Assembly (NCBI GenBank): GCA_963779415.1
Contig: CAVZYA010000001.1
Span: forward strand, 516,519-580,518
DNA from: an uncultured Acidobacteriota bacterium
Lineage (GTDB): Bacteria > Acidobacteriota > Thermoanaerobaculia > UBA5066
DNA: 64,000 nt
Direction of reading: 5' to 3'
Shown: in pieces, positions 3,992 through 22,460 of the stretch
Position numbering within the stretch: the stretch's first letter is position 1
Layout: every line of letters begins with the position of its first letter
The notes under the pieces: model-generated
What the model saw: the letters and a program-made list of their open reading frames with translations, nothing else
What the model was told of the DNA's origin: nothing
Databases searched by the model: none
Translations under genes and position numbers: made by a program

Positions 3992-4434
3992 GTCGCGTCC
4001 TTTCGCGGGGCGTCTCCGGCGGGTCCGTGCGGCCCGTCGGGAGACGCGACACCCTCGCCGCGCGCCTCCATGTCGACGCTCCCCCTGAATCTCGCTCCTT
4101 CGGCGATGACGATCTTCGGGGCCCGGATGTTCCCTTCGAGGGAGCCCGTCGGCAGCAGCTCGACCCTCTCGCCGGCGACGACGTTCCCGACGACATGGCC
4201 GCCGATGACGACGACGTTCGCGGTCACGTCGGCGAGGACCTCTCCTTCGGGTCCGACCCGGAACGAGCGGGCGACGTTCACGCGCCCCTCGATGCGGCCG
4301 TCGAAGAGCATGTCCTCCTCCCCCGTCAGATCCCCATGGAGGCGGACCTTGGGCCCGACGTAGGTACGCCGGACCTCGTGGCGGGGGGACTCCTTCTCGG
4401 GAGAAGGGGATCCGGACTTTCCGAAGATCGCCAT
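3988..4434 (-). CDS. Bactofilin (DUF583) cytoskeletal protein
   Basis: Repetitive beta-helix-like segments ([64 protein letters not shown]). ATG chosen at 4434 (MAIFGKSG...). The longer ORF to 4578 begins with TTG and GC-rich low-complexity sequence. Confidence 0.7.
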
Positions 4435-4919
4435 TCGAAACGAAACGAGTGTAACCGGGCTCGTCGGGGGGAACAATGAAGCCGGAACATCAGACGCCCC
4501 AGGCTCTTCAGAAGCTCCGACTTCGGCTCGCCTGCCCGAAACGGGACAGGAGTTCTTACTTGTGCCTTCGGCGAACAAGGTAGACCGGCTTCCGGACCCC
4601 TACGTGTTCGGAACGCCCCCTTTTACGGTTCGCGTTAATTCATGTCGTCTAGTGCAAGTGCTTCATCGGCCTCGCCAGATTCCTATTTGACTCGAACGGA
4701 TTCTGGATATGATCGCCGCGAAGTCGCGATGAAGACGGAATCCGGGCGGTCGTCCTTGGCCTCCACTCGCTCGTTCTCAGCGGGAATTCCGGTCGATGCG
4801 AGCCCGGTCAGCCCAGGGAGATATTAATAATGATGGCTCAATAGAGGTCCGGCCTCTGGCGTTTCCCATTTCGTTCGAAGACGAGGAGAGGAATGAAAGG
4901 AAAGGGAGGAAAGGGATAA

Positions 4920-6053: not shown

Positions 6054-6118
6054 CACGACGTTCAGACGTCTCGTCGATTCCTGTTCTTTCGATAAATCAC
6101 GGAGGATAAGGAGGCTTC

Positions 6119-7345: not shown

Positions 7346-7466
7346 ACTTAGGAGAGAAACTCTCGTAAGTGATAAGCCCGCGGGGCCGGGAGTTCCGGGC
7401 CCGGCCTCGTGGGTCATCTCTCGCAAGGCACCGGATTCGCTCCGTCAGACTTAATAACGTGCCTTC

Positions 7467-8966
7467 ATGGAGGTCCAAAACATGGCGGAAAAAAGAAATG
7501 TCGAGATCAAGAGCCGACAGGACACGCTGGCTCTGATCACTCCAGAAATCAGGCCCTGGCCTGTCTCACCACCCCCTTCGCCGGAGGAAGTGAAGAAGTC
7601 CTACGCCAAGCGGAAAGCCGAGGTGTTCGGCCAGTGGCTCGAAGACAACATGCGTCTCGAGTATTCCTGGCAGAAACCCGAGGCCCTGCAGGGCCTGAAG
7701 GTCCTCGACATCGGGCTCTGGAGGCTGGGGCACAAGTTCGGCGCCTCCACGCTCGCGCAGGCCGGTGCCGAGGTGATCTGTATCGAGCCCCCCACGGGCG
7801 ACCCGCTCAGACAGCTGACCCCCTTCGGGCGGGAAGAGTACATGCTCGCCGACAAGGAAACCGGCGAGAAGTGCGGCCTCGGGTTCATCGACATACACCG
7901 GAACACGCACTCGGTCACCCTCAACGTCGAGACTCCGGAGGGGCAGGAGCTGTTCAAGAAGCTCGCGGTCCACGCCGACATCGTCCTTGACGGGATGCTC
8001 CCCGGCTACATGGACAACCTCGGGATCGGGTACCGGGACCTCTCCCAGATCAACTCCCGCCTCATCTACGTGAACGTCATGCTCCGGGGATCCTGGGGCC
8101 CGGCAAAAGACCGCGTCTCCAAGTTCGGCCAGTGGGAACTGGATCCCTTCGCGCAGGCGACCAATTCGTACATTCACAACACCGGCTTCGCTCAGGACGC
8201 GCTGCCGCGCGGCAAAGGGGGCGACCCGACCCGGGCCGGGTCGTGGCTCGCCGACTATGTCGCCGGCGAGCAGGCGGCCGTCAACGCCCTCGCGGCGATC
8301 TACTGGCGGGAAGAGGTCAGCAATGAGGGGCAGTTCATCGAGGTGACCGGCGCCGAGACCCTGATGGACATCCTCGACTTCGACATCTCCTGGTACGGCT
8401 TCAACGGCAGCATCAAGGCGCGGACAGGGGGATGGGACCCCAACCTGAACCAGTATGCGTGGAACCCGTGCCGGGACGGCTACATGATGATCGGCGGCCA
8501 GAGCGACCGGCTCTGGTACCGGATCGGCATGTGCATCGAGCGGGACTTCCCGCAGTTCGGCCGGCTCATCCACGAAGACCCCTTCCTGAAGGAAGTCGGC
8601 GCGCGGAACGCCCTCCACGCCCTCATCAAGACCTACACCGTCACGACGCGCTGGCTCCGGGAGACCAATCGGATCGAGGCCGAAGAGAAGCTGATGGACT
8701 ACGAGATCGCGGCCGGCCCGCTCCTCTTCATCGACGAGACCTGCGAGTTCCCCCACTTCAAGTACCGGCCCTGGGTCTACAACTGCGAGACGGACTACGG
8801 GACCGTCCTCTACTCGACGGTCAATAACGCCTATCAGATGAGGACGCCGCACCGGGTCAAGTGGCTCGGGAGACGGCTCGGCAAGGACAACTACGACGTC
8901 TACCAGCGCTGGGCCGGACTGGGCCCGAACAAGGTGGACCAGCTCAAGGGAAAGGGGGCGATCTAA
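7467..8966 (+). CDS. CoA-transferase family III (CaiB/BaiF/Frc-like), subunit 1. Alternative ATG at 7482 has the better RBS (GGAGGT).
   Basis: GLKVLDIG...[22 protein letters not shown] matches the family-III N-terminal Rossmann signature. 499 aa. Stop TAA overlaps the ATG of the next gene (TAATG). Confidence 0.85.
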
Positions 8967-10354
8967 TGGCCGGCGAGATCAGACCCAAGAGTGCGGGCGA
9001 GCTGCATGAGATGCGGGCGCCCTACGAGGAGTTCTGCCGGAAGGCCTTCGATCCCGGCAACGAGCACTCGAAGCCCGAGTCGCTGAAGGGGATCCGGTGG
9101 CTCTCCTGCACGATGTACATCTTCACGCCCCACTCGGCCGCGAACCTGGCCGAGCTGGGCGCCGAGGTGATCAAGATCGAGATCCCCCGGATGGGCGACG
9201 CCATGCGGCACACCTCGCCCTTCAACGAGGCGTACCTCTATCCCCTCCACGACACCCGGCCGGGGACGGGAACCGGGTTCGGGTTCACGAACGCCAACCC
9301 GAACAAGCACTTCATCTCCCTCGACTATCACGTACCGGAGATGCGGGAAGTTTTCTACAACATGGTCCGGCAGAGCGACGGGCTGACCGAGCTCTACCGT
9401 CCCGGGACCTTTGACCGCTGGAAGATGAGCTACCCGACCCTCGCGCAGATCAACCCGCGGTTCATCTACGTCTGGGGCGGCGGGTTCGGCTACGGGCCGA
9501 AGGTCTTCGGGGGCTCCTATGACATCCTCGCGCAGTCCCACGCCGGGTTCGCGTCCATCACCGGAATGCACGACTTCATGGGCGGCCACTGCTCCAAGTC
9601 ATCCAACTGGGTCATGGACTGGGCCTCCGGCACCCTGATCACGTTCGGGATCCTCGCCTCCATTCTCTGGCGCCGGAAGACCGGCCTCGGCACCATGATC
9701 GAGTTCTCGCAGGTGCAGACCTCCACGATGTTCACCGAGTATGCCGTTCCTCTTTACGGCCGGTTCGGCATCGTCCGGCAGCGGTGGGGAAACTGGGACA
9801 CCCAGCTCTGCGCCCACGGGATCATCCTTTGCGGCAAATCCGACTTCCCCGATGCCCAAAACCCGCAGGACAAGTTTGACGCCCGGTACGTCATGGTCTC
9901 CGCCTTCCAGGATGCGGACTTCAAGGAACTCTGCAACGTCGTCGGCCGGAAAGACATCTACGATAAATACAAAACGCACAAGGACCGGCTCGACCCCCGG
10001 GCCCAGGTCGACATCTACCAGGCGCTCGAGAAATGGGCCGGAGACAAGACCCGGGCGGCGGTGGTCAAGGTCCTGACCGACGCCGGCATCCTCGCCTCCC
10101 CCGTCATGAACGACCGGGAAGTCTACGAGTACGAGCACTACCGCGAGCGGGGCACCGTCCGCTGGATCGACGACCCCCTCTTCGGCGACTTCCTCCTGCA
10201 GGCCGGCTACAGCGCCGGCCACCTGGCCAAGACCCCGAGAAGGACGAACTGGATCTGGCGGCCCGTTGGCGCCGACAATGTCAAGATCTACCGGGATCTG
10301 CTCGGCTATCCACTGAGCAAGATCGAGGAGTGGTATGGCAAGGCCTACATCTAA
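8966..10354 (+). CDS. CoA-transferase family III, subunit 2 (paralog of the upstream gene)
   Basis: [42 protein letters not shown] signature. Translationally coupled to the upstream paralog, suggesting a heteromeric enzyme. Confidence 0.85.
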
Positions 10355-10368
10355 AAGGAGGCAGCGCC

Positions 10369-10854
10369 GTGTGTGACATCATCTGGTGCAAGAAGCAGGT
10401 TTCCGGCAAGACGTGCAACACCGTCAATTACCTGGACCCGTACAACTTCTGGAACTGGGAAGGCAAGGTGAACTGCGCCGAGTGCGGGACCGTCTACGCC
10501 ATCCACATGATCCAGGGCTTCATGTACAAGGGGCCAACGGAGAAACCCGGAGAGAAGCCCGACATGAGTCCCCTCTACGCCGACAAGCCGCTGGAGGGCT
10601 ACCGGTGTTACCTTCCCGGGATCGAGGGCAGGACGAGGCCTTGGCAGTGCCTCCCCCGACATATCTACCTCGGCCACGCGGACACGGTGAAGTGGAGCCT
10701 CCGCGGAAGACCCGTGCGTGGCTGGCGTCCTCAGCCGAAGTCTGCAGGCATCGCTGGAAGCTTCGGCCACAAGTGGGATATCGAGAAACTCTCACCGGAG
10801 ATCTGGGCCGAATACCAGGAGAAGCTGAAGAGCGGGAAGCTGAAGGACTGGTGA
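10369..10854 (+). CDS. Hypothetical Cys/Trp-rich small protein (zinc-ribbon-like N-terminus)
   Basis: GTG start 15 nt after the CoA-transferase stop, preceded by AAAGGAGG. Cys pattern C-x4-C-x8-C...C-x2-C. Coding-like composition, 161 aa. Confidence 0.5.
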   Translation: MCDIIWCKKQVSGKTCNTVNYLDPYNFWNWEGKVNCAECGTVYAIHMIQGFMYKGPTEKPGEKPDMSPLYADKPLEGYRCYLPGIEGRTRPWQCLPRHIYLGHADTVKWSLRGRPVRGWRPQPKSAGIAGSFGHKWDIEKLSPEIWAEYQEKLKSGKLKDW

Positions 10855-10876: not shown

Positions 10877-11137
10877 ATGGCCGAGGGAAAACAGTTAACG
10901 CCTGAAGAATTCCTGGCTACGGTTCTCGTGCCGCAGTATGGCCGGGAAAGCGGGCACATGTGCTGGGATTGCAAGCACTTCAAACCGGTTCTGAAGGGCT
11001 CCAAGTTCCCGCCCACCGACACGATCGGCTGGTGCACGCAGATCCACTGGCCCTTCTACTGGTGCGTGACGGACTTCAACGTCGTCAAGAAGTGCTACGC
11101 CTTCGAGAAGGGCATTTACACCTTCAAGAAGTTCTGA
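10877..11137 (+). CDS. Hypothetical small Cys/Trp-rich protein (86 aa)
   Basis: RBS AAAGGAG 8 nt upstream of the ATG. CxxC plus three further Cys and many Trp. Tight spacing with neighbours. Confidence 0.55.
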   Translation: MAEGKQLTPEEFLATVLVPQYGRESGHMCWDCKHFKPVLKGSKFPPTDTIGWCTQIHWPFYWCVTDFNVVKKCYAFEKGIYTFKKF

Positions 11138-11138
11138 C

Positions 11139-11432
11139 ATGGAGGAGAACGTCCGGAAGGAGCTGGATACGCTCACGGGGATGGTGCTGACCTGGAAGAA
11201 GGACTATCTCGGGTCGGTATCATCCGATGAGGACTGCGAGTACCTCGCTCGGGAATTCCTGGACGAGGTGGAGACCCACGTCTACCCCTACGTGAGGAGG
11301 CTCATGGAATGCAATTTCCTCACGGGACCGGAGGCGACGGAGTTTCTCGACTCCTGCTATCGCCAGGCAGAGGAGCTGAACAAAGCCATCCAGCAGCCGG
11401 ACGCCAAACAGGGTGAAACGATAGGAGGGTAA
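11139..11432 (+). CDS. Hypothetical small acidic helical protein (97 aa) ending in ...ETIGG-stop
   Basis: ATG overlaps the upstream stop (TGACATGG). C-terminal diglycine immediately followed by TAA. Next gene starts 3 nt later. Confidence 0.5.
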   Translation: MEENVRKELDTLTGMVLTWKKDYLGSVSSDEDCEYLAREFLDEVETHVYPYVRRLMECNFLTGPEATEFLDSCYRQAEELNKAIQQPDAKQGETIGG

Positions 11433-11434
11433 AC

Positions 11435-11854
11435 ATGGCTGAGAAATGCCGAGTGGGGGTCTGCGGGTACGACCCCGTTCTGGTGAAGGGATACGTCAAG
11501 ACAGGCGAGCGAGCCCTCTGGTGGCACCTGTCGGACGAGGTGTACGAACAATACCAGGTGAAGCCGGGTGACACCGTCACCGGGAAGATCCTGGCGGTTT
11601 ACGACGGGACCGGCACGAAGACGGCCTCCCCGAACGAGCCCTTCGAGTGGAAGTGCCCGAAGGAGTCGGGCCTGGCGGTCCTCCTGCCGCCTGCGACCAT
11701 CGTCAAGTTCAAGCTCTCCGCTTTCCATTTCCTCGAGCTGCTCGTGGAGAAGGTCGGCGGAAAGGACGTCTATCCCGGCAAGGAGCAGATGAGCTTGAAA
11801 TGGTGGCCCGAAGAGAGGATGAAGCTCGACTACAAGGTGCCTTACATCGAGTAG
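11435..11854 (+). CDS. Hypothetical protein (139 aa)
   Basis: RBS GGAGGG upstream. Coding-like composition. Last gene before the intrinsic terminator. Confidence 0.55.
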   Translation: MAEKCRVGVCGYDPVLVKGYVKTGERALWWHLSDEVYEQYQVKPGDTVTGKILAVYDGTGTKTASPNEPFEWKCPKESGLAVLLPPATIVKFKLSAFHFLELLVEKVGGKDVYPGKEQMSLKWWPEERMKLDYKVPYIE

Positions 11855-11948
11855 AACACAGGACGCTCTCTCCCCCGCTCCCTTGAAGCGCCGGTTCCGT
11901 TCGGACCGGCGGGCAAGGACCGGGCGGGGCGAAATCAGTCGCTCACGG

Positions 11949-11994
11949 CCCCCTCTCCTGGCCCTGAAGCACCAGGAGAGGGGGATTCTTTTTC
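11949..11994 (+). terminator. Rho-independent terminator: 13-bp perfect stem CCCCCTCTCCTGG / CCAGGAGAGGGGG, 10-nt loop, then ATTCTTTTTC
   Basis: Perfect inverted repeat followed by a T-tract on the + strand only. Sits 95 nt after the stop at 11854 and ends the OFA/CoA-transferase/small-protein operon. Confidence 0.75.
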
Positions 11995-12048
11995 ATGTAT
12001 CCTCGGCGATGGAACGGTGACATTCGATCGGAAGGGAGAATCGCGTAC

Positions 12049-12291
12049 ATGACAGAACACGACAAGCCGAATGAAGAGGGCTACACGGCTCCGGCGTACG
12101 TCGACCCGGCGATGGGCGACAGCCCCCCCGTCGGAGGCCTGATTGACAACGAGGCCGTCTGCCGGGACTGCATGACCGCCGCCGAGGAAGTCAGCATGCG
12201 GCGCGGGTTTGTCGACCCCGTCTCCGAGCAGCAGGCCAAGGCGAAGGGGACCGTCTGCGCCCGGTGCGGCAAGAAACTCGTCGCCGCGTAG
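12049..12291 (+). CDS. Hypothetical small protein with two CxxC pairs (zinc-ribbon-like), 80 aa
   Basis: ATG at 12049 preceded by AAGGGAG. CRDC...CARCGKK motifs. The upstream in-frame ATG at 11995 lies inside the terminator T-tract. Confidence 0.45.
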   Translation: MTEHDKPNEEGYTAPAYVDPAMGDSPPVGGLIDNEAVCRDCMTAAEEVSMRRGFVDPVSEQQAKAKGTVCARCGKKLVAA

Positions 12292-12334
12292 CGCCCCCTT
12301 CAATCCAGCCGGACGGGGCGGGCGGAATCACCTC

Positions 12335-12748
12335 ATGGCAGAGCCGGAAAAGGCCCCACGACGAGAGGTCGTCGAGCAGCTCCTGCCGCTCGTGGTGGAG
12401 TTGATTCCAGGGCAGGCGGCTGAAGGCCTGATCGAAGTGCTCGAGCCGGGCAGCTACGAGGCCCATTCCCTCCGGACGCTTTGCGAGAATCTCCTCAGGA
12501 GAACGAACTGGAGCGTGGAGGAGCAGCAGGTCCTGGAGGACATCAGGAGACAGCTCGACGGGGGCCGGCTCCTCTGCCGGGGCCGACCCGTCGACGGCCG
12601 GGCTCTGGATCTCGCGGTGGTCGAGGAAACCGAAGCAGGCGAGAAGTATCTCTATGTGCCTGTCCACGCCATCAGGCCGCAGGAAGGCGGAGGCGCGGCA
12701 CCCCGGATCGCGCACCAAAGTTCAGCAGACGAGAGCAGGAGCCTATGA
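12335..12748 (+). CDS. Hypothetical protein (137 aa) and candidate ubiquitin-like modifier precursor: helical N-terminal half, then ...KYLYVPVHAIRPQEGGG followed by a 17-aa tail
   Basis: ATG at 12335 (MAEPEK...). Coding-like composition. The C-terminal half resembles a beta-grasp ending in GG(G), like MoaD/ThiS/ubiquitin tails, with a removable extension. Stop overlaps the next ATG (ATGA). Confidence 0.5.
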   Translation: MAEPEKAPRREVVEQLLPLVVELIPGQAAEGLIEVLEPGSYEAHSLRTLCENLLRRTNWSVEEQQVLEDIRRQLDGGRLLCRGRPVDGRALDLAVVEETEAGEKYLYVPVHAIRPQEGGGAAPRIAHQSSADESRSL

Positions 12749-12951
12749 GTTCCAGGTTCGTAGTCACGGAGAGCACCACGGTGGACGATGTTGCCGCGGC
12801 GGGCCGGCCCGACCCCCTCTACTGCAAACTCGGCCTGGGCCAGCAGGCCCGCGTCCTCGCGGACGAGATCGATGCCGCGCTTGGTGGGGATACGAGCTGC
12901 GGGGGCGCCGGACTCGGATATGTTCCGGACATCGTAGAGGTTGAAGAATAG
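12745..12951 (+). CDS. Hypothetical small protein (68 aa) with internal ...CGGAG... motif
   Basis: ATG overlaps the upstream stop; GGAG 8 nt upstream. Could alternatively be a spurious ORF. Confidence 0.35.
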   Translation: MSSRFVVTESTTVDDVAAAGRPDPLYCKLGLGQQARVLADEIDAALGGDTSCGGAGLGYVPDIVEVEE

Positions 12952-13159
12952 CCTGGAGAATCGCGTGGAGATAGAGGCTCCCAAGGACTGGGACCCGAAG
13001 TGCCCAAAGTGCCAGGAAGAGCTTCGACGAATGCTCGAGCTGTCACAGTCGGTCTACGAGGACCTCGACCACGGCGCGGGGTTGTACCGGTTGCCGTTGC
13101 CACCTTGCACGCACCATGCGGCGCAGGGCGAGCACAAAGACGCAGGAGGGGTCGCTTGA
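12941..13159 (+). CDS. Hypothetical small protein (72 aa) with CPKC motif
   Basis: Overlaps the previous ORF by 11 nt. Weak support; composition only. Confidence 0.3.
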   Translation: MKNSLENRVEIEAPKDWDPKCPKCQEELRRMLELSQSVYEDLDHGAGLYRLPLPPCTHHAAQGEHKDAGGVA

Positions 13160-13199
13160 CAGACCCACTTGTGGCTTTCCGGCCGTCGGGCGCCCCGGC

Positions 13200-14411
13200 A
13201 TGATGGATCTGCTGGAGTCCGACCTGGAGCTCGTCGTCCGGTCAGGATTCATCTACCTGCCGCTCCTCTTTGATCCTTCGGTGGCGACGGAGATCGAGGG
13301 GAACGTGGGCAATCACCTGGTCGCCCGGGACGCCGGCAGGCATTTCGTTCGGACGATGAGCCTGCGATCGCTCGTTTCAAGCTACGAGGCTCTCTGGCCG
13401 AAGTCGTACGAGAAGTTGCGGCGGTCGAAGCTGTGCCGGTTCTCCGGGGACCTTTCGCCGGCCGAAACGGGCGCCAGCGAGCGGCTGAAGGAGATCCTCT
13501 TCTCCGTCATGCCGCACTTCGTCAGGAGGGGGAAGCGGCTCGACAGGAGGCGGCTGACCGAGGAGGACGTGCTGGACCTCATCGAGGAGAGAACCGGACT
13601 TCCCGGCGGATACGCCATGGCTGCAGCCAGCGCTCGGGATCCGGGCTCCATCCGGCAGATCCTCGTGGAACTCGAGGAACGCCGCCCGGCGGCCGAGCCG
13701 CTGCCCGAGGGCCGAATGTCTGCGCGGACCCTCGCGGATTGGCTTCTGCGCGCCCAGGAAGCCCGGATTCTGGAAGAGGAGAGCCAGCGACTGACGGGGT
13801 TTCTCTCCGCGCAGGAGGGCCTCGATACGAGGGCGGCCAGGCGGCTGGCGATTTTGCGGTGCGTCGCGGAGAAGGGGACGTTGGAAATCGACGGATTCGG
13901 CTTTCTGAGGACAGGACCCGGCGACGACTACGTGATCTACAAGCGCACCGGCGAGTTCGCTCTCAAGGACTACTACGGTCGGCTCTATCTGTTTCCGGAT
14001 TGCCGGGTTGCCGTGTCGACGGCCGCTGGCCTCAGGCCCTTCGTCGTGGAGACCTACAAGCATCCGTTTCTCGAGGCCCACGACTCCGGCCAGGAGATCT
14101 GCCTGGGCCGCACCACGGCGCGCCGCTTCTCCGGAGCGGCGGCGATCGTCGAGGCTCTGCAGGAGGGAATCAACGCCCTGCTCCATGGCTACAGCAGCCG
14201 GCGCCGAAACGGGTACCACAGACTGGAGGGACTGTTGAGGTCGGTCCGGCTCCCTGGCCCGGACGATCCCGGCTACCCGGAACCGCCGGACGACAGGCCC
14301 CGCTCCAAGCGGCACATCCTGGACGTCGACTTCGACGACTACCGCATCCCGGCCGATCACCCCGGGATCGTGTCGGGTCGGGTCGAGATCACCAACGACG
14401 TCGTGCCGTGA
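13200..14411 (+). CDS. Protein with a C-terminal UBC/E2-like domain (HPF...GQEICLG) and a ~250 aa N-terminal domain of unknown function
   Basis: ATG-ATG at 13200. C-terminal segment LYLFPDCRVAVSTAAGLRPFVVETYKHPFLEAHDSGQEICLGRT...IVEALQEGINALL mirrors the UBC core: beta-sheet, HPN-like motif, then catalytic Cys in G-x-I-C-L. HPF codons at about 14061-14069, Cys codon about 14099. Confidence 0.6.
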   Translation: MMDLLESDLELVVRSGFIYLPLLFDPSVATEIEGNVGNHLVARDAGRHFVRTMSLRSLVSSYEALWPKSYEKLRRSKLCRFSGDLSPAETGASERLKEILFSVMPHFVRRGKRLDRRRLTEEDVLDLIEERTGLPGGYAMAAASARDPGSIRQILVELEERRPAAEPLPEGRMSARTLADWLLRAQEARILEEESQRLTGFLSAQEGLDTRAARRLAILRCVAEKGTLEIDGFGFLRTGPGDDYVIYKRTGEFALKDYYGRLYLFPDCRVAVSTAAGLRPFVVETYKHPFLEAHDSGQEICLGRTTARRFSGAAAIVEALQEGINALLHGYSSRRRNGYHRLEGLLRSVRLPGPDDPGYPEPPDDRPRSKRHILDVDFDDYRIPADHPGIVSGRVEITNDVVP

Positions 14412-14884
14412 TGACGACGGACGACACCCTCTCGCGGGACGAGCCGCCCCGGGCGACGCCGGATCTGTTGCGGGACATAAGAACCATGCGCGCCGGCAGG
14501 CGGCGGAAGGAGCCCTTTCGGACGAGCCTCTACTCCCGGGTCGGGGGTCTGGTGAGGCGATATGGCCTGGACGAGGCGTTCCTCCGGGCGCTCGACTCCC
14601 CGGGCGGCTTCTCCCGGGACGGCCGTCCGGATGCCGTCCGGCCGAAGGGGAAAGCGCCCTATGCTCCTCCCCTCTTTTTCCTTTCCACGGAGAGAGAGCA
14701 CCGCGTGACGACGGTCATCCTGGAGAAAGTGAAGAGCCCGTTCCTCGCGTACGCCACGTCGCCCGACGAGATTCTCCTCTGCGAACGCCTGTTCCGTGAG
14801 GACCCGTCCCTTTCTCAGGAAACGCTCGCGTGCCATCATTTCGAGACGTTGATGCCGGCCGGAGCGGATTCCGGGCCGGGCTGA
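14411..14884 (+). CDS. Hypothetical protein (157 aa), operon member
   Basis: ATG overlaps the upstream TGA (GTGATGA). Coding-like composition. Confidence 0.5.
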   Translation: MTTDDTLSRDEPPRATPDLLRDIRTMRAGRRRKEPFRTSLYSRVGGLVRRYGLDEAFLRALDSPGGFSRDGRPDAVRPKGKAPYAPPLFFLSTEREHRVTTVILEKVKSPFLAYATSPDEILLCERLFREDPSLSQETLACHHFETLMPAGADSGPG

Positions 14885-14899
14885 GGCGGGAGGAGAGTC

Positions 14900-16000
14900 G
14901 TGGAACGGATTTCGCCGCAACGCCGCCGGGAGATCGGGGAGAGAGTCGGCGCATTCCGCGAGAGCCAGGTCGGCGACGCCGTCAATCAGATTCTCGAGTT
15001 CGACAAGACGCCGGCCGACCTCAAGGCCTACATGGACCGGTTCGTCATCGGCCAGGAGCAGGGGAAGAAGATCATCTCCGTCGGCATCGCCTACCATTAC
15101 CGGAGGCTCGCGGCGGCCCTCAGGCGCGCCGTCGTCGAGAACGGCGAGGAGCTGGGCGCCGCCTTGCACGGCGCGGCCACGCCGAAGGCCAACATCCTGA
15201 TCGTGGGGCCCCCCGGCTGCGGGAAGACCTACACGGGCGAGGTCGCCTCCCGGCTCGTGGGGGTGCCGTTCGCCGTGGAGGACCTGACGAAGTTCAGCGA
15301 AACGGGCTACGTGGGCCAGAACGTGAGCGACATCCTCCTGGACCTGCTGATCGCGGCCGGCGGCAACCCCCAGGTGGCCCAGATGGGCATCGTCTACCTG
15401 GACGAGATCGACAAGATCGCCGCCGAGCCGATCGTCTCGAAGGACGTGTCGGGGCGCGGGGTCCAGAAGGGGCTCCTCAAGCTCGTCGAGGGGGCCGAGA
15501 ACACCATCGACCTGGGCCAAGAACGGATCTCCCTTTCCACCCGACACGTCCTGTTCATCGCAGGAGGCGTGTTCGAGGGGCTGGAAGGAACCGTCGGAAA
15601 GCGGATGGAAAGGGATCGTCTCGAAGGCGAGTGGAAGGACCACCTCCTCACGGACGACTTCGTCGGCTGCGGGATGGAGCGGCAGCTCATGGGGAGGTTC
15701 CCCGTTCGGGCCGTCTACGACCCGCTCAGCGTCGAAGACCTCAAGAACATCCTGCTCGAGAGCGAGGAGAGTCCGTCCCGCGCCTACATCGACGACCTGA
15801 AGGCGTGGAACATCGAACTCCGGTTCACGGACGGCGCTCTCACGGAGGTCGCGAGGCGCGCGCAGCAGGATCGGACGGGCGCCCGGGGACTCATCGGCAT
15901 CCTCCACAAGGTGCTTCTGGAGGACATGTACCGGCTTCCGGGCGTCCACACCGGCGAGCTGGTGGTGGACGAGAAGTACATCCGGGAGCGGCTCGGGTGA
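14900..16000 (+). CDS. ClpX-like AAA+ ATPase (unfoldase) lacking the N-terminal zinc-binding domain and the IGF ClpP-docking loop
   Basis: [22 protein letters not shown], Walker [25 protein letters not shown], Walker [30 protein letters not shown] and sensor-2 TGARGL all align with ClpX/HslU. 366 aa, against ~420 aa for canonical ClpX. Confidence 0.85.
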
Positions 16001-16050
16001 GATTCCGGGGGCTCTCGGAGCTGAAGCGCGCGCCATGCTTCGAGGCTCCC

Positions 16051-16803
16051 GTGGGAACCCTGCCGGAGTGGATCCGGATGACGCGTCACTCCCTCGCGAA
16101 GGCCTTCAAGATCAACGAGCTCGTCCGGTCCGTCCACGGGGACAGCTACGAGTGGTACGGATTCACCGTCGCCGAGCGGAGCGATCCGGAGCTGGTCGTG
16201 GACGTTCTTCTTCCGGCCAACGACGAGAACTTCACGGACCACACCCGCGTCGCACCCGAGGCGATCGACGCGTCGAGAGAGTCCCTCCCCCGGGATCGGG
16301 TGATCAACGGCTGGATCCACTCCCACGGGGCCCTGCCGTACGAAGGGTTCTCCTTCGTGGACGAGAGGAACCAGGAGGCCGTGACCGATTACGTGAACAC
16401 GCTTCTCAGGAAGCCGGTGGCCAAGAAGGAGATCCTGATCAGGGACCTCGCGATCCTCGTCGAGGGCCGCTTCTCGGAGAAGGAGCTGGAGCAGGGAAGC
16501 GTCGCGCTCATCACCGACGCCCCCGTCAAGGAGGCCCGGATCATCGAGACCATATACGGAAGCTTCTGCTTCGCCATCGTCATCGGCGACGACGGCTGGC
16601 ACAGGCAGCAGGTCCATTACCGCAGGCGGGGCATCCTTTCCGGGCAGACGACCGAGGAGAGCCGGGACACCGACATCGTCCTTTCGGGCGACGCGCGGCC
16701 GCTCACCGAGGCGGAGATCCAGATGCTGGCGGACGAGGTCCGCACCCGGATCCGGCCGGGCGTGGCCGTTCCACCCGAGCGGTTCGAGCGGGAGGCGACA
16801 TAA
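16051..16803 (+). CDS. JAB/MPN (JAMM) family metalloprotease, deubiquitinase-like
   Basis: Motif GWIHSHGALPYEGFSFVDE = H-x-H-x8-S-x2-D with upstream Glu residues. GTG at 16051 or ATG at 16078. Lies in the long frame after the ClpX-like gene. Confidence 0.75.
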   Translation: MGTLPEWIRMTRHSLAKAFKINELVRSVHGDSYEWYGFTVAERSDPELVVDVLLPANDENFTDHTRVAPEAIDASRESLPRDRVINGWIHSHGALPYEGFSFVDERNQEAVTDYVNTLLRKPVAKKEILIRDLAILVEGRFSEKELEQGSVALITDAPVKEARIIETIYGSFCFAIVIGDDGWHRQQVHYRRRGILSGQTTEESRDTDIVLSGDARPLTEAEIQMLADEVRTRIRPGVAVPPERFEREAT

Positions 16804-16840
16804 GGTCGGCGGCGGCCTGGGGCGAAGGGACGCGATCGGC

Positions 16841-18118
16841 ATGGAGACGGGACCGGCTCGCGAGAAGGCGCATGACCCGAGGCTGGACCGCCAGCTCCGG
16901 ATCCCGAACTGGAACCAGCGGGCCCTCGAGGAGGCGCGGCTCGCCGTCTTCGGCGACGACGACCTTCTCGCCTCGCTCTACGTCCTCTCCGCCGCGGCCC
17001 TCGGCGTGAACGACGTCGTCCTGATCGCGCCCGCCTGGAATGAGAAGCTGATCGAAATCGCCCGCCAGCTCAATCCGAGGCTCAGGCTGGCCCTCCTCGA
17101 GGGGCTCCACACCCACCCGGTCCTGGAGGAGCTCTTCAGGCCCTGCACGGCCATCGTGGACCTCACCCGCTACGCTCTGGCCAACAAGCTTCTGCTGGAG
17201 ACGGGCTACCGGTCGGGAATTCCGGTGATCCGTGGGTTCTGCCTCGAGAAAGACGGGTGGGAAGGGCTCTCCGTCTTCACCTACAGGCGCGGCCGGGAGT
17301 GGGAGGAGCTCCGGGAGCTCGTCTCGCCCTCCAATCTTCCCTGCGACCACTTCGACGACGCGATTCTGGCCCTCGTCGCGGCCGGCATCGCCCTGGAAGA
17401 AACCAAGAACGTCATCATGGGACACCGGGTGTCGGAGGAGCTGATCGGCTACAGGCGGCCGAAGGTGGTTCCCCTGGAGCCCGACTCCGGCGTCATCATC
17501 GTCGGCGCCGGCGCCCTGGGTAACTTCGTCGGGCTCGGACTGGCCTGTACGGGGCTCCGGCGAATCACGGTCGTCGATCCCGACGTGGTGGACGTGACTA
17601 ACCTCAACAGGCAGGTGCTCCTGGCCGGCGGCGTAGGCCGAAGCAAGGCCGAGGTCCTCTGCGAGCGCCTGCACTCCCTCTTCGGAATCCGGGCGGAGGC
17701 CCGGGTGGCTTATTTCCGGAAGGACTCCGAGCTCGACGCCTCCGACGCTGTCTTCGATTGCGTGGACAACTTCGAGACCCGGGTGATCCTGAGTGAGAGG
17801 TGCCGGGAAGAGGGAAAGGTGCTCATCAGCGGCGGCACGGGCCCTCAGGCCGGACAGGTCATCGTGTTCGATCCGGCGCGCCCGAGCGAAACGCCCGCGG
17901 AGGTTCTGGGACTCTACGAAATCGTCGAGAGGCGGGAGATCGACGCCTTCCGGAGGGAGACGGCGTCCTGCGCCTACCAGCCCGATCCGTCCGTCGTCAT
18001 GACGAATCAGATTATCGGAGGATTGATGGCCGATTCCTATCGTAGGCTCCTGGCCGGAGAGGAGACCCCGAATATCTTCTACGATTCGAGGAACGACGCC
18101 CGGATCTTCGGGGGGTGA
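16841..18118 (+). CDS. ThiF/MoeB/E1-like activating enzyme with a degenerate N-terminal and a canonical C-terminal adenylation domain
   Basis: N-terminal LDRQLRIPNWNQRALEEARLAVFGDDD... lacks GxGxxG. C-terminal IIVGAGALGNFVGLGLACTGLRRITVVDPDVVDVTNLNRQVL is the classic E1 nucleotide-binding motif. Cys in ...ETASCAYQPD is a candidate thioester site. Confidence 0.85.
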   Translation: METGPAREKAHDPRLDRQLRIPNWNQRALEEARLAVFGDDDLLASLYVLSAAALGVNDVVLIAPAWNEKLIEIARQLNPRLRLALLEGLHTHPVLEELFRPCTAIVDLTRYALANKLLLETGYRSGIPVIRGFCLEKDGWEGLSVFTYRRGREWEELRELVSPSNLPCDHFDDAILALVAAGIALEETKNVIMGHRVSEELIGYRRPKVVPLEPDSGVIIVGAGALGNFVGLGLACTGLRRITVVDPDVVDVTNLNRQVLLAGGVGRSKAEVLCERLHSLFGIRAEARVAYFRKDSELDASDAVFDCVDNFETRVILSERCREEGKVLISGGTGPQAGQVIVFDPARPSETPAEVLGLYEIVERREIDAFRRETASCAYQPDPSVVMTNQIIGGLMADSYRRLLAGEETPNIFYDSRNDARIFGG

Positions 18119-18191
18119 TAGAGTCGCGGCGAATTGCGTCCTGACGTGATGCGACGGCGAAAGGCCGCGGATCAGGGCCGAAGGAGCCGAG

Positions 18192-19415
18192 ATGAGCAGC
18201 GAGAACGACGTCGCGCAGACTCAGGAGGACCAGCCGATCGGCTGGCAGCGCCTCGGCGACGTCCTGACACCGCCGATTCCCGGCTTCGAGGACCTCCTCT
18301 TCCTTCCGAGCCTCGACAATCAGTCCTCCAACATCTACGTCCTGCCGGGGGACTGCGTAACGATCGTGGACCCGGGGAACGATTACACGGCCTTAATGGA
18401 GCTCTTCCCTGCGAGAGCCAGGCCCGAGGACGTCAGGAAGATCGTCCTGACGCACGGGCATTTCGACCACGCCATGGGGGCGCTCGAGTTCCTCAGGACG
18501 TATCCGGATCGCCCCACGGGCGCGCGCATCGAGCTGATCCTCCACGAAGGGGGTCCCGACCAGTTCAAGCAGACGGCGAGGGAGCAGGGCGCCTCCGTGA
18601 CCGAGGTACGGGGCGGGGAGACTCTCGAGCTGAGCGGCCTTTCCTTCGACGTGATCTACACGCCAGGCCATACCATCGACGGCATCGCCCTCTATCACGC
18701 CCCCTCGAGGACCGTCTTCAGCGGCGACGTCGTGCTGCCGCTCGCGGTAGCCGGACCCGATCCCAAGGCCGGGGGAAGCCTGGACCAGTACCTGTTCGGG
18801 CTGAGGGCGTTGCTCGCGAGGGAGATCGAGAACGTCCTCCCGGGCCACGGCCCCGTCGTCGGCCCGGGCGGGAGGAAGGTCATCGAGCAGACCTACGAGG
18901 CCGTCATGATGAAGCTCCTGGGGGTCGAGAAGCCGATCCCGTGGATCCAGGGTGCCATTCAGCTCGCGGAGCGCGGGCTGCTGGAAGAGGCCGTTTTCTG
19001 CGCCGGGAAAGAGCTGGCCCGCGACCCGGGGCACGCCAAGGCCCTCGAGCTCAAGGCCGTGTGCCTCAACGATCTCGGGCGGTCGTCTGAGGCCCTCGAG
19101 GTCCTGGATCGGCTGCAGGAGCTGCAGGCCGGCGACGATGCGTTCATCCACGTCGGCAGGGGATATGCCCTCATGGGGCTTGGCCAGTTCGAGGAGAGCG
19201 TCAAGTGCTTCGACGCCGCTCTCCGCATCACGCCGGGCCTGAGGGACGCGCTCGTCTACAAGGGGATGGCCCTCCATCTCTCGGGGAACCACGAGGAGGC
19301 CATGGACATCGAGCCCTTCAGGACGGAGTTCATGGGGCGGTTCCGGAGCGAGCTGCTCAAGGCGTCGCGGCCCGCCCCGAAGGATGGCCTCGCCGAAGGC
19401 ACTGGAAAGGCCTGA
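18192..19415 (+). CDS. Metallo-beta-lactamase-fold hydrolase fused to C-terminal TPR repeats
   Basis: LTHGHFDH (HxHxDH), TPGHT and a later His-Gly; C-terminal half has TPR-like A/L/G/Y spacing. 407 aa. Last gene of the operon. Confidence 0.8.
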   Translation: MSSENDVAQTQEDQPIGWQRLGDVLTPPIPGFEDLLFLPSLDNQSSNIYVLPGDCVTIVDPGNDYTALMELFPARARPEDVRKIVLTHGHFDHAMGALEFLRTYPDRPTGARIELILHEGGPDQFKQTAREQGASVTEVRGGETLELSGLSFDVIYTPGHTIDGIALYHAPSRTVFSGDVVLPLAVAGPDPKAGGSLDQYLFGLRALLAREIENVLPGHGPVVGPGGRKVIEQTYEAVMMKLLGVEKPIPWIQGAIQLAERGLLEEAVFCAGKELARDPGHAKALELKAVCLNDLGRSSEALEVLDRLQELQAGDDAFIHVGRGYALMGLGQFEESVKCFDAALRITPGLRDALVYKGMALHLSGNHEEAMDIEPFRTEFMGRFRSELLKASRPAPKDGLAEGTGKA

Positions 19416-19540: not shown

Positions 19541-21214
19541 GTGAGCACGATTCCCGAAAACTATCTTCCCCCGAAGGAGTTCCAACCCGAGCGGATCTAC
19601 AAGCTGAAGGAGTTCGCGAGCTACCCGGATCCGCTGAACAGCACCGAGGAGCTACTCGACAAACAGATCGCCGCGGGCCGGGGCGACAGCCCGGCGGTCC
19701 TCTTTGCGGACAAGGTCCTGACCTACAAGCAGCTTCTGGGGGCGTCCTGCAAGATCGGGAACGCGCTCCGGAAGCTGGGGGTCGAGGAGTCGGACCGGGT
19801 GTTGCTCCGCTCTCCGAACGTTCCGCCCGCCCTCTTCACGAACTTCGGGGTCCTGAGGCTCGGGGCGGTCATCGTCCCGACCTCTCACATGCTCTCCCCC
19901 CCGGAGATCATCCACATCGCCAACAACGCCGAGGCGAAGGTGATCGTGGTGGCGTCCGCGTTCCTCGAAGGGGTCATCAAGGCGCGCCCGAACCTGAAGA
20001 CCGTCAAGCACGTCATCGTCTTCGGCGGCCAGCCCGAGGAGCTGAAGAAGCAGGATCTTCTCTGCTACGAGGAGCTCGTCGCGAACGAGGCGCCGGCCTT
20101 CGCCCCGGTACGCCGTCCGCGCAAAGCCGTCGCCGTTCTTCTTTACACCTCGGGCACGACCGGCCTGCCGAAAGGGACGGTCCACTACCAGGAAGAGGCC
20201 CTGATCGTTCCGGACACCTTCGGCAAGTACGGATGGAACGTCCAGCCGGAAGACATCATCTGCGGACCCGCGCCCATCTCGCTGGCCGGCGGATACTCGA
20301 CCGTGGCGACGATCCCCTTCCGGTTCGGCGCCGCGGCCTCCCTGATTCCCAAATTCACGCCGGACGGGCTCTTCGAGACGGTCCAGAATCACAAGGTGAC
20401 GATCCTGAGCGCCCTCCCCACGGCGTACCGCAAGATGCTCGAGGTTCCCGGCGCGGAGAAGAAATACAACCTCTCCACCCTCCGCGTCCTGACCGGTGGC
20501 GGTGAATCGCTGACCGCAAAAACCTACAACGACTGGAAGGGGCGCTTCGGCCAGGAGATCTACGAGGGGCTCGGCACGTCGGAGATGATGTACGTCTTCG
20601 TCTCGAGCGTGGTGACGCGGAAAGTCAAGCCCGGCGCGATCGGCACCGCCGTCCCCGGTTACGAGATCCAGGTCATCACCGAGGAGGGAAAGGTCGCCAA
20701 GCCCGGAGAGCTGGGCCGGCTTTACGCCCGCGGGCCGACGGGGACGCTCTACTGGCGCCCGTACGAGGACGGCGGCAGCATGCTGGAGAAGCAGAAAGCC
20801 GTCATCCGCGAGGGGTGGGTGCTCGTCGGGGACTTCTGCACGATAGACGACGACGGGTACCTCAGCTTCGTGTCGCGCCAGGAGGACCTGATCAAGAGCT
20901 CCGGCTACCGGATCGGACCCGAGGAGGTCGAGGACGCTCTTCTCAAGCACCCGGCCGTGGCGGACGCCGGCGTGATCGGGGTTCCGGACCCCGTCCGGGG
21001 CCACAACGTCAAGGCCTTCGTCCTCCTGAGGCCCGGACAGACGCCGAGCGACGAGCTGAAGCAGCAGATCATCGACAGTTGCCGAGATCACATCGCGATC
21101 TACAAGCTTCCCCGCATCATCGAATTCACGAGCGAACTCCCGCGCACCCTCCAGGGGAAGCTCCTCCGGCGGGTTCTGCGGGACAAGGACAAGGGGGCGG
21201 CTCCCGCGAGCTAG
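19541..21214 (+). CDS. AMP-forming acyl-CoA synthetase/ligase (benzoate/aryl-CoA ligase-like)
   Basis: GTG at 19541 with AGGAGG 11 nt upstream. LLYTSGTTGLPKG (AMP-binding box I), YEGLGTSE, and C-terminal ...GKLLRRVL with Lys. Confidence 0.85.
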   Translation: MSTIPENYLPPKEFQPERIYKLKEFASYPDPLNSTEELLDKQIAAGRGDSPAVLFADKVLTYKQLLGASCKIGNALRKLGVEESDRVLLRSPNVPPALFTNFGVLRLGAVIVPTSHMLSPPEIIHIANNAEAKVIVVASAFLEGVIKARPNLKTVKHVIVFGGQPEELKKQDLLCYEELVANEAPAFAPVRRPRKAVAVLLYTSGTTGLPKGTVHYQEEALIVPDTFGKYGWNVQPEDIICGPAPISLAGGYSTVATIPFRFGAAASLIPKFTPDGLFETVQNHKVTILSALPTAYRKMLEVPGAEKKYNLSTLRVLTGGGESLTAKTYNDWKGRFGQEIYEGLGTSEMMYVFVSSVVTRKVKPGAIGTAVPGYEIQVITEEGKVAKPGELGRLYARGPTGTLYWRPYEDGGSMLEKQKAVIREGWVLVGDFCTIDDDGYLSFVSRQEDLIKSSGYRIGPEEVEDALLKHPAVADAGVIGVPDPVRGHNVKAFVLLRPGQTPSDELKQQIIDSCRDHIAIYKLPRIIEFTSELPRTLQGKLLRRVLRDKDKGAAPAS

Positions 21215-21241
21215 GCGCCGACCCCGGCGAGGAGGCCGGCC

Positions 21242-22054
21242 ATGGCGGTCGTCACGGTGTCGCGCGGAGCCGGGAGCAAGGGGCAGGCATTCGCCCGGCA
21301 GCTTGCCGACCGCCTTGGATACGAGCTCGTCAGCCGGGAGGACGTCGTTCAGGCGGCGGCTAAATCCGGCGTCCCCGCCGAGAGGTTGCAAAAAGCGCTT
21401 CTCGAGGCGCCCGGCTTCTGGGACAGGCTCACCCTCGACCGGAAGCGATATCTGGCGTTCGTCCAGGCGGCGCTTTCGGAGCGGGCCCGCAAGGACCGGA
21501 TCGTCTACGAGGGGAACGCGGGACACCTGCTGCTCCGCGGCGTCTCGCACGTCGTCTGCATTCGTCTCCTGGCGCCGCTCTCGCACCGCGTCCAGACGGC
21601 CGTGGAAACTCTCGGGATGAGTCACGACGAAGCCGTTCGTTACATCGAGAGCTCGGATCACGAACGGGAGAACTGGACGCGCTTTCTCTACGGCGTGGAC
21701 TGGCTCGATGCCGCCCTCTACGACGTCACCCTCAATCTGAGGACGCTCCTGATCGACGGCGCCGTCGAGGCGGCGCTGGCGGTCGTCCAGCGCCCGGAGT
21801 TCGCGCCGACCGGAGAGAGCCGGAGCGCGATGGAGAACCTCGTTCTGGAAAGCCGCGTGCAGGCGGCCCTCGCGTCCAATGGCGAGACCGCGGCGGCGGC
21901 GGTCCAGGTACATGCCGGGGACGGAGTCGTGTCGCTTCGGGGCCGGGTCCGCCCGGCCCGGATGGTCGACGCCGTCCTCGGCGTCGTCGGCCGCGTGGAC
22001 GGTGTGAAGGAGATCGACTCGCGGGACCTCGGAGCGCCCGACTACACCGTTTAG
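21242..22054 (+). CDS. Cytidylate-kinase-like P-loop protein with C-terminal BON domain
   Basis: N-terminal VVTVSRGAGSKGQAFARQLADRLGY P-loop. C-terminal ...VVSLRGRVRPARMVDAVLGVVGRVDGVKEI resembles BON. Confidence 0.55.
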   Translation: MAVVTVSRGAGSKGQAFARQLADRLGYELVSREDVVQAAAKSGVPAERLQKALLEAPGFWDRLTLDRKRYLAFVQAALSERARKDRIVYEGNAGHLLLRGVSHVVCIRLLAPLSHRVQTAVETLGMSHDEAVRYIESSDHERENWTRFLYGVDWLDAALYDVTLNLRTLLIDGAVEAALAVVQRPEFAPTGESRSAMENLVLESRVQAALASNGETAAAAVQVHAGDGVVSLRGRVRPARMVDAVLGVVGRVDGVKEIDSRDLGAPDYTV

Positions 22055-22082: not shown

Positions 22083-22460
22083 TCAGGACTTCGGACCCCC
22101 CGTCAGGCTCACGATGAGGTCCCGAAGCTGCGTGATCTTGAACGGCTTGGGAATGAAATCCACCGCTCCGCTCCGCATCGCCTCGCGCGCCGTGTCGACG
22201 GTGGCGAAACCGGTGATGATGATCACCTTCGTCGCCGGCGCGTGCTCCTGCGCAAACCGGAGGACATCGATGCCGTCCGGCCCCTGCATCTTGAGATCCG
22301 TCACGAGGACGTCGAATTTCTCTTCCATCAGCCGGTCGATGACCTTCTGGCTGTCCGTGTAGGTCTCCACTTCGAAGCCGCTCTTCTCCAGCGCCGGCTT
22401 GAGCCTCTCGCACACGATGGGCTCGTCGTCGAGGATCAGGATCCTCCGTTTGCCTCTCAT
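22083..22460 (-). CDS. Single-domain CheY-like response regulator
   Basis: ILILDDEP...DVLVTDLKMQG...IIITG...KPF motifs. 125 aa. Stop overlaps the start of the upstream PEP-utilising enzyme gene. Confidence 0.85.
   Translation of the reverse strand: MRGKRRILILDDEPIVCERLKPALEKSGFEVETYTDSQKVIDRLMEEKFDVLVTDLKMQGPDGIDVLRFAQEHAPATKVIIITGFATVDTAREAMRSGAVDFIPKPFKITQLRDLIVSLTGGPKS

Follow-up and report, generated by a model that had tools for sequence, protein, structure and literature searches.

Organization of the locus

This study concerns a 64,000-nucleotide (nt) stretch of DNA from an uncultured Acidobacteriota bacterium (assembly GCA_963779415.1, contig CAVZYA010000001.1, positions 516,519 to 580,518), here referred to as the window, with positions counted from its first nucleotide. 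It focuses on an operon that appears to encode a ubiquitin-like conjugation system together with an AAA+ unfoldase. Between positions 12049 and 19415, ten genes are found, all on the plus strand and overlapping or closely spaced. Six of these form the core of the proposed system, namely, I) a 137-amino-acid (aa) precursor of a ubiquitin-like protein (Ubl; 12335-12748); II) a 403-aa E2-like protein (E2L; 13200-14411); III) p157, a protein of 157 aa (14411-14884); IV) a 366-aa AAA+ protein of the ClpX clade (14900-16000); V) a 268-aa JAB/JAMM metalloprotease with a GTG start (15997-16803); and VI) a 425-aa E1 with two ThiF-like halves (16841-18118). The other four encode the small proteins z80 (80 aa, 12049-12291), s68 (68 aa, 12745-12951), and s72 (72 aa, 12941-13159), and MBL-TPR, a glyoxalase-II-like MBL-fold hydrolase fused to TPR repeats (18192-19415). 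Overlaps occur between the genes for Ubl and s68 (4 nt), s68 and s72 (11 nt), E2L and p157 (1 nt), and the AAA+ and JAB proteins (4 nt), and the remaining gaps measure 15-73 nt.

The Ubl operon is set apart from a CoA-transferase module upstream by an intrinsic terminator on the plus strand (11949-11994), which ends that module and consists of a perfect stem of 13 bp and a U-rich tail (UUCUUUUUC). The folding energy of this terminator is -28.9 kcal/mol (z -3.6), and none of 200 shuffled sequences folds equally well; it was missed by a consensus scanner because its loop is 10 nt long. A preliminary description of the same DNA had placed this terminator ahead of 11 tightly spaced same-strand genes; the terminator, the tight junctions, and the coordinates stand, and the gene count is corrected to ten. 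The start of the JAB gene, formerly put at 16051, is likewise moved to the GTG at 15997, since the homologs have 268 aa and the GTGA at 15997-16000 overlaps the stop codon of the AAA+ gene. The window was also scanned for Rfam families, tRNAs, and tandem repeats, all without a match, and a search for sigma-70 promoters found none, as expected at its GC content of about 67%.

Components of the core

The AAA+ protein is matched by Pfam AAA_2/AAA and, at scores below their cutoffs, by the NCBIfam ClpX models NF003745 (258 bits, cutoff 359) and TIGR00382 (235 bits, cutoff 371). It can be aligned to E. coli ClpX structures over residues 37-361. This alignment bears out the earlier suggestion of a ClpX-like ATPase devoid of a zinc-binding domain and an IGF loop: the ClpX match begins at residue 37, no Cys occurs in residues 1-36 where the N-terminal C4 zinc-binding domain would be sought, and the 14-residue IGF loop is deleted opposite 'tgsgigfgatvkak', as is the RKH loop. 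In total, four of the five tested features of ClpX membership are missing. The Walker A/B motifs, the GYVG pore-1 loop, the sensor motifs, and the Arg finger are retained, and across 42 homologs most residues of the motifs (including GPxGCGKTY and GARGL) are found in at least 95% of the sequences and the rest in 70-95%. The protein thus appears to be an intact unfoldase-type motor that, without the IGF loop, would be unable to dock canonically on ClpP. It comes from the ClpX/HslU clade and not from the Rpt/Cdc48 clade, which implies that it came to resemble the proteasome and Cdc48 by convergence and not by common ancestry.

In the alignment of the JAB family, residues E52, H108-S-H110, S119, and D122 are invariant (E...HxHx8SxxD), giving a spacing one residue longer than that of the canonical motif. 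Weak, sub-threshold matches to Pfam Prok-JAB were obtained for 15 of 30 family members (best E 0.0071), and the single sequence from the window has no match in Pfam or PDB. Judged by these invariant residues and family matches, the protein is accepted, in agreement with its first reading, as a putatively active JAMM protease. In 38 of 40 loci, the stop codon of the AAA+ gene overlaps the JAB start or lies no more than 5 nt from it, an arrangement that predicts translational coupling of the JAB gene to the AAA+ gene; because of this coupling, the two proteins likely form a complex.

In the E1, Pfam ThiF is restricted to residues 216-411 (1.7e-35), and this active half scores best against ThiF/MoeB models. 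For the N-terminal half (205 residues), a profile search gave E. coli MoeB as the best PDB match (E 0.0026, collinear), and this half carries GDDDLL in place of GxGxxG, i.e., a degenerate P-loop; comparison of the two halves by hhalign is weakly positive (E 0.015). These observations support a degenerate ThiF-like half followed by a probably active adenylation half, the tandem architecture that had been proposed. Within the active half, Cys377 lies in the crossover segment, an insertion of about 45 aa, and is conserved in at least 95% of the homologs. The adenylation domain also matches the PADLOC models of CBASS E1-E2 proteins (1e-16).

The Ubl precursor contains a beta-grasp core (approximately residues 18-119), whose predicted fold matches SUMO, ISG15, and BilA. 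The core ends in P115-Q-E-G-G119, with the two glycine codons at 12686-12691. The QEGGG motif plus tail that had been noticed in this protein is present and invariant across homologs; in the family, the invariant PQEGG either forms the very C-terminus or precedes a variable tail or a fused domain. In the window, an 18-aa non-conserved tail follows the GG, and it is presumably removed by the JAB protease. The Ubl homologs listed are 58-99% identical to the window protein. Searches of Pfam, NCBIfam, and PADLOC returned nothing usable for the Ubl, the small proteins, E2L, p157, and JAB of the window.

E2L consists of an N-terminal domain of about 200 aa without assigned function and a C-terminal UBC-like domain, in which H288-P289...C301 is invariant and C301 is the candidate catalytic cysteine. 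The motif HPx...G-x-I-C-L, on which the protein had originally been called UBC-like, was found as HPF...GQEICL and is invariant across homologs. Among structural matches to the predicted model of this domain, BubB ranks best, followed by Cap2 and a CdnG-associated E2. Downstream of the UBC-like domain, in the region of E2L residues ~330-376 (window 14187-14330), an invariant basic motif, GYSSRRRNGYH, precedes some 45 residues of variable sequence rich in Pro and Asp; this stretch, for which disorder is predicted, is missing in some Desulfobacterota. The beta-meander contains another invariant cysteine, C268 in LFPDCRV. No informative domains were found in per-member Pfam scans of the E2L family or of its long sister family, and single-sequence and profile searches of PDB with JAB, E2L, and p157 gave no meaningful matches.

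The 157-aa protein had been treated as incidental. Its position between E2L and the AAA+ protein is conserved in essentially all loci, and p157 is for that reason considered a core member and a candidate adaptor or receptor. It has no assignable fold and no Pfam match, the per-member scan of its family included. The basic N-terminal helix region (approximately residues 25-60) gives weak profile matches to the C-terminal domain of ribosomal protein bL20, which could reflect composition or a shared RNA- or protein-binding helix; an assignment as an L20-like RNA binder was rejected, as the evidence was too weak (E 0.0056-0.026, N-terminal helix only). In some loci, an extra gene of about 106-108 aa is called between E2L and p157 (L001, 11226-11546; L056, 11238-11564; L057, 11223-11543), and gaps of 350-550 nt are found at this place in L005-L009, L019, L025, and L031. 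The window does not have this extra gene.

Conservation of the six-gene core

A scan of a genome collection with an E2L profile yielded 52 loci (designated by L numbers), which were then searched with all window proteins. The order Ubl-E2L-p157-AAA-JAB-E1 is found in almost every locus, and the complete six-gene core is present in 27 of the 31 non-redundant loci that have enough flanking sequence; overall, the gene set was seen again in more than 50 independent loci. A lack of co-location of the homologs elsewhere was one of three conditions named as refuting the preliminary description, none of which was borne out; the genes do lie together in nearly every homologous locus. This recurrence of the same gene set across many loci excludes a chance juxtaposition. 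In L030, L039, L041, and L052, the E1 gene is located upstream of the Ubl gene and the set is still together. The hosts are Desulfobacterota (Syntrophobacterales, Desulfobaccales, and Desulfobacterales), Methylomirabilota, Binatia, and a few others, and include one cultured organism, Desulfoferrobacter suflitae DRH4 (L039).

An exhaustive E2L profile search gave 207 clusters at 50% identity, and these include a sister group of 430-590-aa proteins that have only the UBC-like domain in common with E2L. In one locus of this sister group (L058, on a contig of 33% GC), a 166-aa protein, an E2L-like protein (487 aa), an AAA+ protein (383 aa), a JAB-like protein (403 aa), and an E1 (448 aa) are encoded at 2057-8224, followed by a TFIIB gene at 8597-9526; because this TFIIB gene is of the archaeal type, an archaeal origin of the locus is likely. 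By eye, F replaces the second JAMM histidine in its JAB-like protein. The 166-aa protein was considered as a possible Ubl equivalent, to which its resemblance is weak (hhalign E 0.12). Another sister-family locus (L062, 27% GC, truncated) has the order AAA-JAB-E2L-E1 with a JAB protein of 631 aa, and two further contexts (L060 and L061) are too short. The pairing of AAA+ with JAB and the association of E2L with E1 hold even in this low-GC branch, the deepest and by far the more diverged.

Relation to known systems

To our knowledge, protein conjugation by bacterial operons that encode E1, E2, JAB, and Ubl proteins has been shown since about 2023, only in phage defense, and none of those characterized has an unfoldase. 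The combination with a ClpX-like unfoldase had seemed unfamiliar from the outset. Nothing linking a ClpX-like or other AAA+ protein to a bacterial E1/E2/JAB/Ubl operon was found in the full-text literature searched, the coverage of which is incomplete, so that an earlier description is possible.

The joint presence of E1, E2, and JAB had been taken as the signature of prokaryotic ubiquitin-like conjugation, and the comparison supports this. The closest known system is BilABCD (bacterial ISG15-like, Type I/II), which comprises the Ubl BilA, the E2 BilB, the JAB protein BilC, and the E1 BilD (PMC10557695). In BilABCD, the Ubl tail is cut by the JAB protease, and the E1 combines an inactive and an active adenylation domain (IAD+AAD), as eukaryotic E1s also do (PMC10557695). 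Features of BilABCD that are predicted here as well are the four activities, a beta-grasp Ubl with a conserved Gly and a non-conserved tail cut by JAB, and a pseudo-dimeric E1 with a crossover Cys; an E3 is absent from both. The two systems differ in that the core described here has six genes instead of four, the AAA+ protein and p157 being without counterpart in BilABCD; in the N-terminal extension of about 200 aa on the window E2; in the E1 crossover insertion, which is about 45 aa long here and forms an approximately 80-aa helical CYS domain there; and in the genomic context, which is metabolic here and not a defense island. No window protein matches a Pfam model of the Bil families (e.g., PF14459 of the BilD N-terminus, or Prok-E2) at E ≤0.1, and Prok-JAB is matched, sub-threshold, only in family members.

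Type II CBASS, with the E1-E2 fusion Cap2 and the JAB protein Cap3, and the Bub system (BubA/B/CD) differ from the window operon, in which E1 and E2 are separate genes, the Ubl is free, and an AAA+ unfoldase is present; neither the window operon nor any of the annotated loci contains a CD-NTase. The candidate defense system 6A-MBL (an E2/E1/JAB fusion, cap2_3, with an MBL protein) likewise combines an MBL-fold protein with E1, E2, and JAB activities. Here, however, the enzymes are unfused, MBL-TPR is associated with the CoA-transferase module rather than with the Ubl core, and the 6A-MBL model NF058523 scores only 45 bits (cutoff 320) on the window E1, over residues 215-291 with the adenylation motif. 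Archaeal SAMP/UbaA/HvJAMM1 and the pairs ThiS-ThiF, MoaD-MoeB, CysO-Mec+, and QbsE-QbsD resemble the present system in having a beta-grasp protein ending in GG, a ThiF-family enzyme, and a trimming or deconjugating JAB protein; they are not known to have an E2 or a dedicated unfoldase gene, and their E1 is homodimeric and often carries a rhodanese domain.

Regarding the unfoldase, the AAA+ protein belongs to the same clade as the ClpX of ClpXP and is encoded with JAB, not with clpP. By analogy, the set of a Ubl tag, a ring unfoldase, and a JAMM isopeptidase resembles the 26S proteasome (Rpt1-6/Rpn11) and Cdc48/p97 with its deubiquitinases; the differences are the ClpX/HslU-clade ATPase and the lack of an encoded 20S-type or other peptidase. 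The Pup-proteasome of Actinobacteria (Pup, PafA, Dop, Mpa/ARC, and 20S) is, as far as we know, the only established case in bacteria where a tag is followed by an AAA+ unfoldase, and it too includes a deconjugating enzyme. It is non-homologous, however, as Pup is disordered and attached by a glutamine-synthetase-like ligase, whereas a beta-grasp Ubl and E1/E2/JAB chemistry are predicted here.

Proposed mechanism and alternative explanations

It is very probable that the locus encodes a genuine system of Ubl, E1, E2, JAB, and AAA+ proteins. The chances are about even that this amounts to a complete cascade of Ubl conjugation and deconjugation, similar in logic to BilABCD, which has acquired an AAA+ unfoldase of its own. 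For this system, we infer from the gene content that tagging is followed by unfolding. The steps up to attachment to a target are proposed from homology with characterized E1, E2, and JAB proteins, and those of the unfoldase and JAB from gene architecture only.

In the proposed scheme, the JAB protease would cut the Ubl precursor after ...PQEGG, removing the 18-aa tail here and fused GNAT or zinc-ribbon proteins elsewhere, and so expose the C-terminal glycine. The pseudo-dimeric E1 would then adenylate the Ubl C-terminus, take up the Ubl as a thioester on Cys377, and hand it over to Cys301 in the UBC-like domain of E2L. Targets would be chosen by the N-terminal domain of E2L, with no separate E3, and the Ubl attached to them. 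A hexamer of the ClpX-like protein would recognize Ubl-tagged proteins, possibly via p157, and unfold, extract, or disassemble them, and JAB, held in fixed stoichiometry with the ATPase by the overlapping codons, would strip and recycle the Ubl during or after translocation in the manner of Rpn11. Since no peptidase is encoded, remodeling, extraction, or inactivation, as by Cdc48, is favored over processive degradation. The full scheme of tagging, unfolding, and untagging could, in our estimate, equally well hold or fail.

Several points weigh against this interpretation. With an ATPase from the ClpX/HslU clade, any likeness to the proteasome reflects analogy and not descent. Recognition of the Ubl by the ATPase is derived from gene architecture, and p157, its possible mediator, has no assignable fold. 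Of five models of the Ubl, one is confident. Furthermore, four loci with ample flank have a partial core, namely Ubl-E2L-p157 (L026 and L044), E2L-p157-E1 (L036), and E2L alone (L032); these indicate that the modules are separable, and possible causes are decay of the copy, a split system, or faulty assembly.

With respect to its role, the system is probably housekeeping or regulatory. A function in defense against phages or mobile elements, in which Bil-like conjugation would tag invader proteins and the unfoldase, as effector, would take tagged viral assemblies apart, is unlikely. BilABCD and CBASS Cap2/Cap3 do act in defense, and other E1/E2/JAB/Ubl operon families are predicted to do so (PMC10557695); the structural ranking of the E2-like domain (BubB, then Cap2 and the CdnG-associated E2) and the match of the E1 adenylation domain to the PADLOC CBASS models point the same way. 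However, PADLOC has no match for the Ubl, E2L, p157, or JAB, the neighboring genes are metabolic or housekeeping (CoA-transferases, ABC transporters, formate dehydrogenase, and UvrA), and the Pfam-annotated flanks contain no integrases, transposases, or known defense genes. The gene order and sequences are also unusually conserved across phyla, unlike those of fast-evolving, patchy defense islands, and a pattern-limited scan of 2.9 million viral contigs found no relatives.

A client-specific maturation or assembly machine is similarly improbable. In such a machine, the Ubl would be a cleavable N-terminal, chaperone-like pro-domain of GNAT, s68, or s72 proteins, or would be attached to a single client (e.g., a complex of CoA-transferases and small proteins), and the AAA+ and JAB proteins would process that client only. 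Fusions of GNAT, s68-like, and s72-like proteins behind the Ubl GG do recur in independent lineages, no E3 or substrate-diversity module is found, and in loci of the Methylomirabilota/Binatia type the CoA-transferase module is co-directional and contiguous with the core, lying behind IclR and sigma-54 regulators in L056. Against this, most Desulfobacterota loci carry the core without a fused or adjacent client, and processing alone would leave the intact adenylation site and conserved Cys of the E1, as well as the Cys of the E2-like protein, unexplained.

The system might also be a sulfur-carrier or small-molecule pathway of the ThiS/MoaD/CysO/QbsE type, in which the E1 would convert the Ubl via an acyl-adenylate into a thiocarboxylate, JAB would only trim, like Mec+ or QbsD, and the CoA-transferases, acyl-CoA synthetase, GNAT, and thioesterase-like MBL protein would handle a small-molecule substrate; we regard this as quite unlikely. 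In its favor, JAB proteins remove the residues after GG in the CysO and QbsE pathways, the active half of the E1 scores best against ThiF/MoeB models, the linkage to CoA-transferases recurs, and the MBL protein is glyoxalase-II-like. On the other hand, the E1 has no rhodanese domain and the core includes no sulfurtransferase or cysteine desulfurase; the E2-like protein with its invariant Cys and the AAA+ protein are universal here and are not needed by such pathways; the CoA module is non-adjacent in most Desulfobacterota loci; and the pseudo-dimeric IAD+AAD architecture is so far known from conjugating E1s (PMC10557695). Lastly, the view that chance has placed side by side a common ClpX paralog, a cofactor enzyme of the ThiF/MoeB kind, and some hypothetical open reading frames can practically be discounted. 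The automated annotations 'ClpX' for the ATPase and 'molybdopterin/thiamine biosynthesis adenylyltransferase' for the E1 would suit this view; they have to be set against a six-gene order that recurs in several phyla (27 of 31 testable loci) and includes stop codons overlapping start codons, and against an ATPase that falls below the ClpX equivalog cutoff and is without the parts that define ClpX.

A conjugation cascade in which the AAA+ motor is obligatory and the JAMM isopeptidase co-translated would, if confirmed, be the first prokaryotic ubiquitin-type system with an operon-encoded downstream 'reader'. How tagging became coupled to ATP-dependent unfolding, a question of long standing, could then be tested directly on a set of six proteins, all small and soluble, and in one host that is in culture. 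At least four families that have no Pfam, NCBIfam, or PADLOC model would be defined (Ubl, E2-like, p157, and JAB), and the labels 'ClpX' and 'MoeB/ThiF', which annotation routinely gives in error to the ATPase and the E1, respectively, would be corrected. In addition, a second conserved and uncharacterized enzyme module, the CoA-transferase module described below, may be a client. A broader and rather doubtful proposal is that a housekeeping machine for tagging, unfolding, and untagging proteins by means of a Ubl exists in bacteria and, it would seem, in some archaea. After conjugation by the E1 and E2, a ClpX-clade hexamer working with a stoichiometric JAMM isopeptidase would recognize the conjugates, remodel or inactivate the proteins that carry the tag, and release it for reuse. 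Such a machine would have arisen independently of, and convergently with, the arrangement of Rpn11 on the ATPase ring in the 26S proteasome and Cdc48, and would regulate metabolism (e.g., the CoA-transferase/metalloprotein complex) and not immunity.

Accessory proteins and neighboring genes

The proteins z80, s68, and s72, together with a GNAT protein found in other loci, are lineage-specific accessories. z80 is a CxxC...CxxC zinc-ribbon protein with weak matches to Pfam zinc-ribbon models, and a homolog was seen only in L001/L012. s68 has a homolog in L004, and s72, a CPxC zinc-ribbon-like protein, is conserved in L001 and L004-L010. In several Ubl homologs, the GG is followed in frame by a RimI-like GNAT acetyltransferase or by homologs of s68 or of the zinc-ribbon protein s72 (L002, 9144-9956; P0251, P0263, P0276, P0287, and P0305), fusions that recall the eukaryotic fusion genes of ubiquitin and ribosomal proteins. 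The s68 sequence forms the Ubl tail directly after GG in P0251 and P0263 (195 aa), and s72 is fused after the GG in P0276, P0287, and P0305. A separate GNAT gene is located between JAB and E1 in L001, L009, L010, and L057.

Upstream of the terminator, the CoA-transferase module (module 2) is encoded on the plus strand. It comprises two family III CoA-transferases assigned by Pfam (7467-8966 and 8966-10354) and four small Cys/Trp-rich proteins of approximately 161, 86, 97, and 139 aa (~10369-10854, 10877-11137, 11139-11432, and 11435-11854). None of the small proteins matches Pfam or could be assigned to a family; their alignments show many invariant Cys, Trp, and His residues and, apparently, high similarity across phyla. 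Module 2 looks like an uncharacterized metalloenzyme complex for an organic acid. One of the small proteins, uC97 (11139-11432), is a helical 97-aa protein with the C-terminus ...ETIGG. It was considered as a second GG-ended modifier and rejected: the terminal GG occurs only in the window, L008, and L010, and its absence from six other homologs makes such a role improbable.

Module 2 adjoins the Ubl core in the window, L001/12, L005-L010, L030 (on the opposite strand), L032, L034, L039, L056, and L057, e.g., at 3147-7581 in L001, at 2955-7816 in L056, and at 11719-15928 on the minus strand in L030. This linkage across phyla and in varied arrangements suggests a functional connection to the Ubl core; it is not universal, as the module is not adjacent in most Desulfobacterota loci. 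The identity of the MBL-fold/TPR protein as first described is confirmed by Pfam and NCBIfam. Its inclusion in the conjugation system is not upheld: MBL-TPR was rejected as a core component because it tracks module 2, being absent from most Desulfobacterota loci and adjoining uD139 at the end of that module, not E1, in L001, L005-L010, L030, L032, L034, and L039. It is normally the last gene of module 2, but in L004 and the window lineage it has moved across the Ubl operon to the far side. Of this module, L052 keeps only MBL-TPR.

Module 2 is preceded in L056 by IclR and sigma-54-type regulators, and in the window by a porin-like gene and an MFS transporter (4920-7345). After MBL-TPR, an acyl-CoA synthetase (AMP-binding) and a cytidylate-kinase-like/BON-domain gene follow on the same strand (19547-22054) and are shared only with the closest relative, L004. 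The minus-strand region beyond them (22083-25069) contains a convergent gene for a response-regulator receiver (22083-22460) and, beside it, an 870-aa open reading frame that by eye resembles enzymes of the PEP-utilizing/pyruvate-phosphate-dikinase type.

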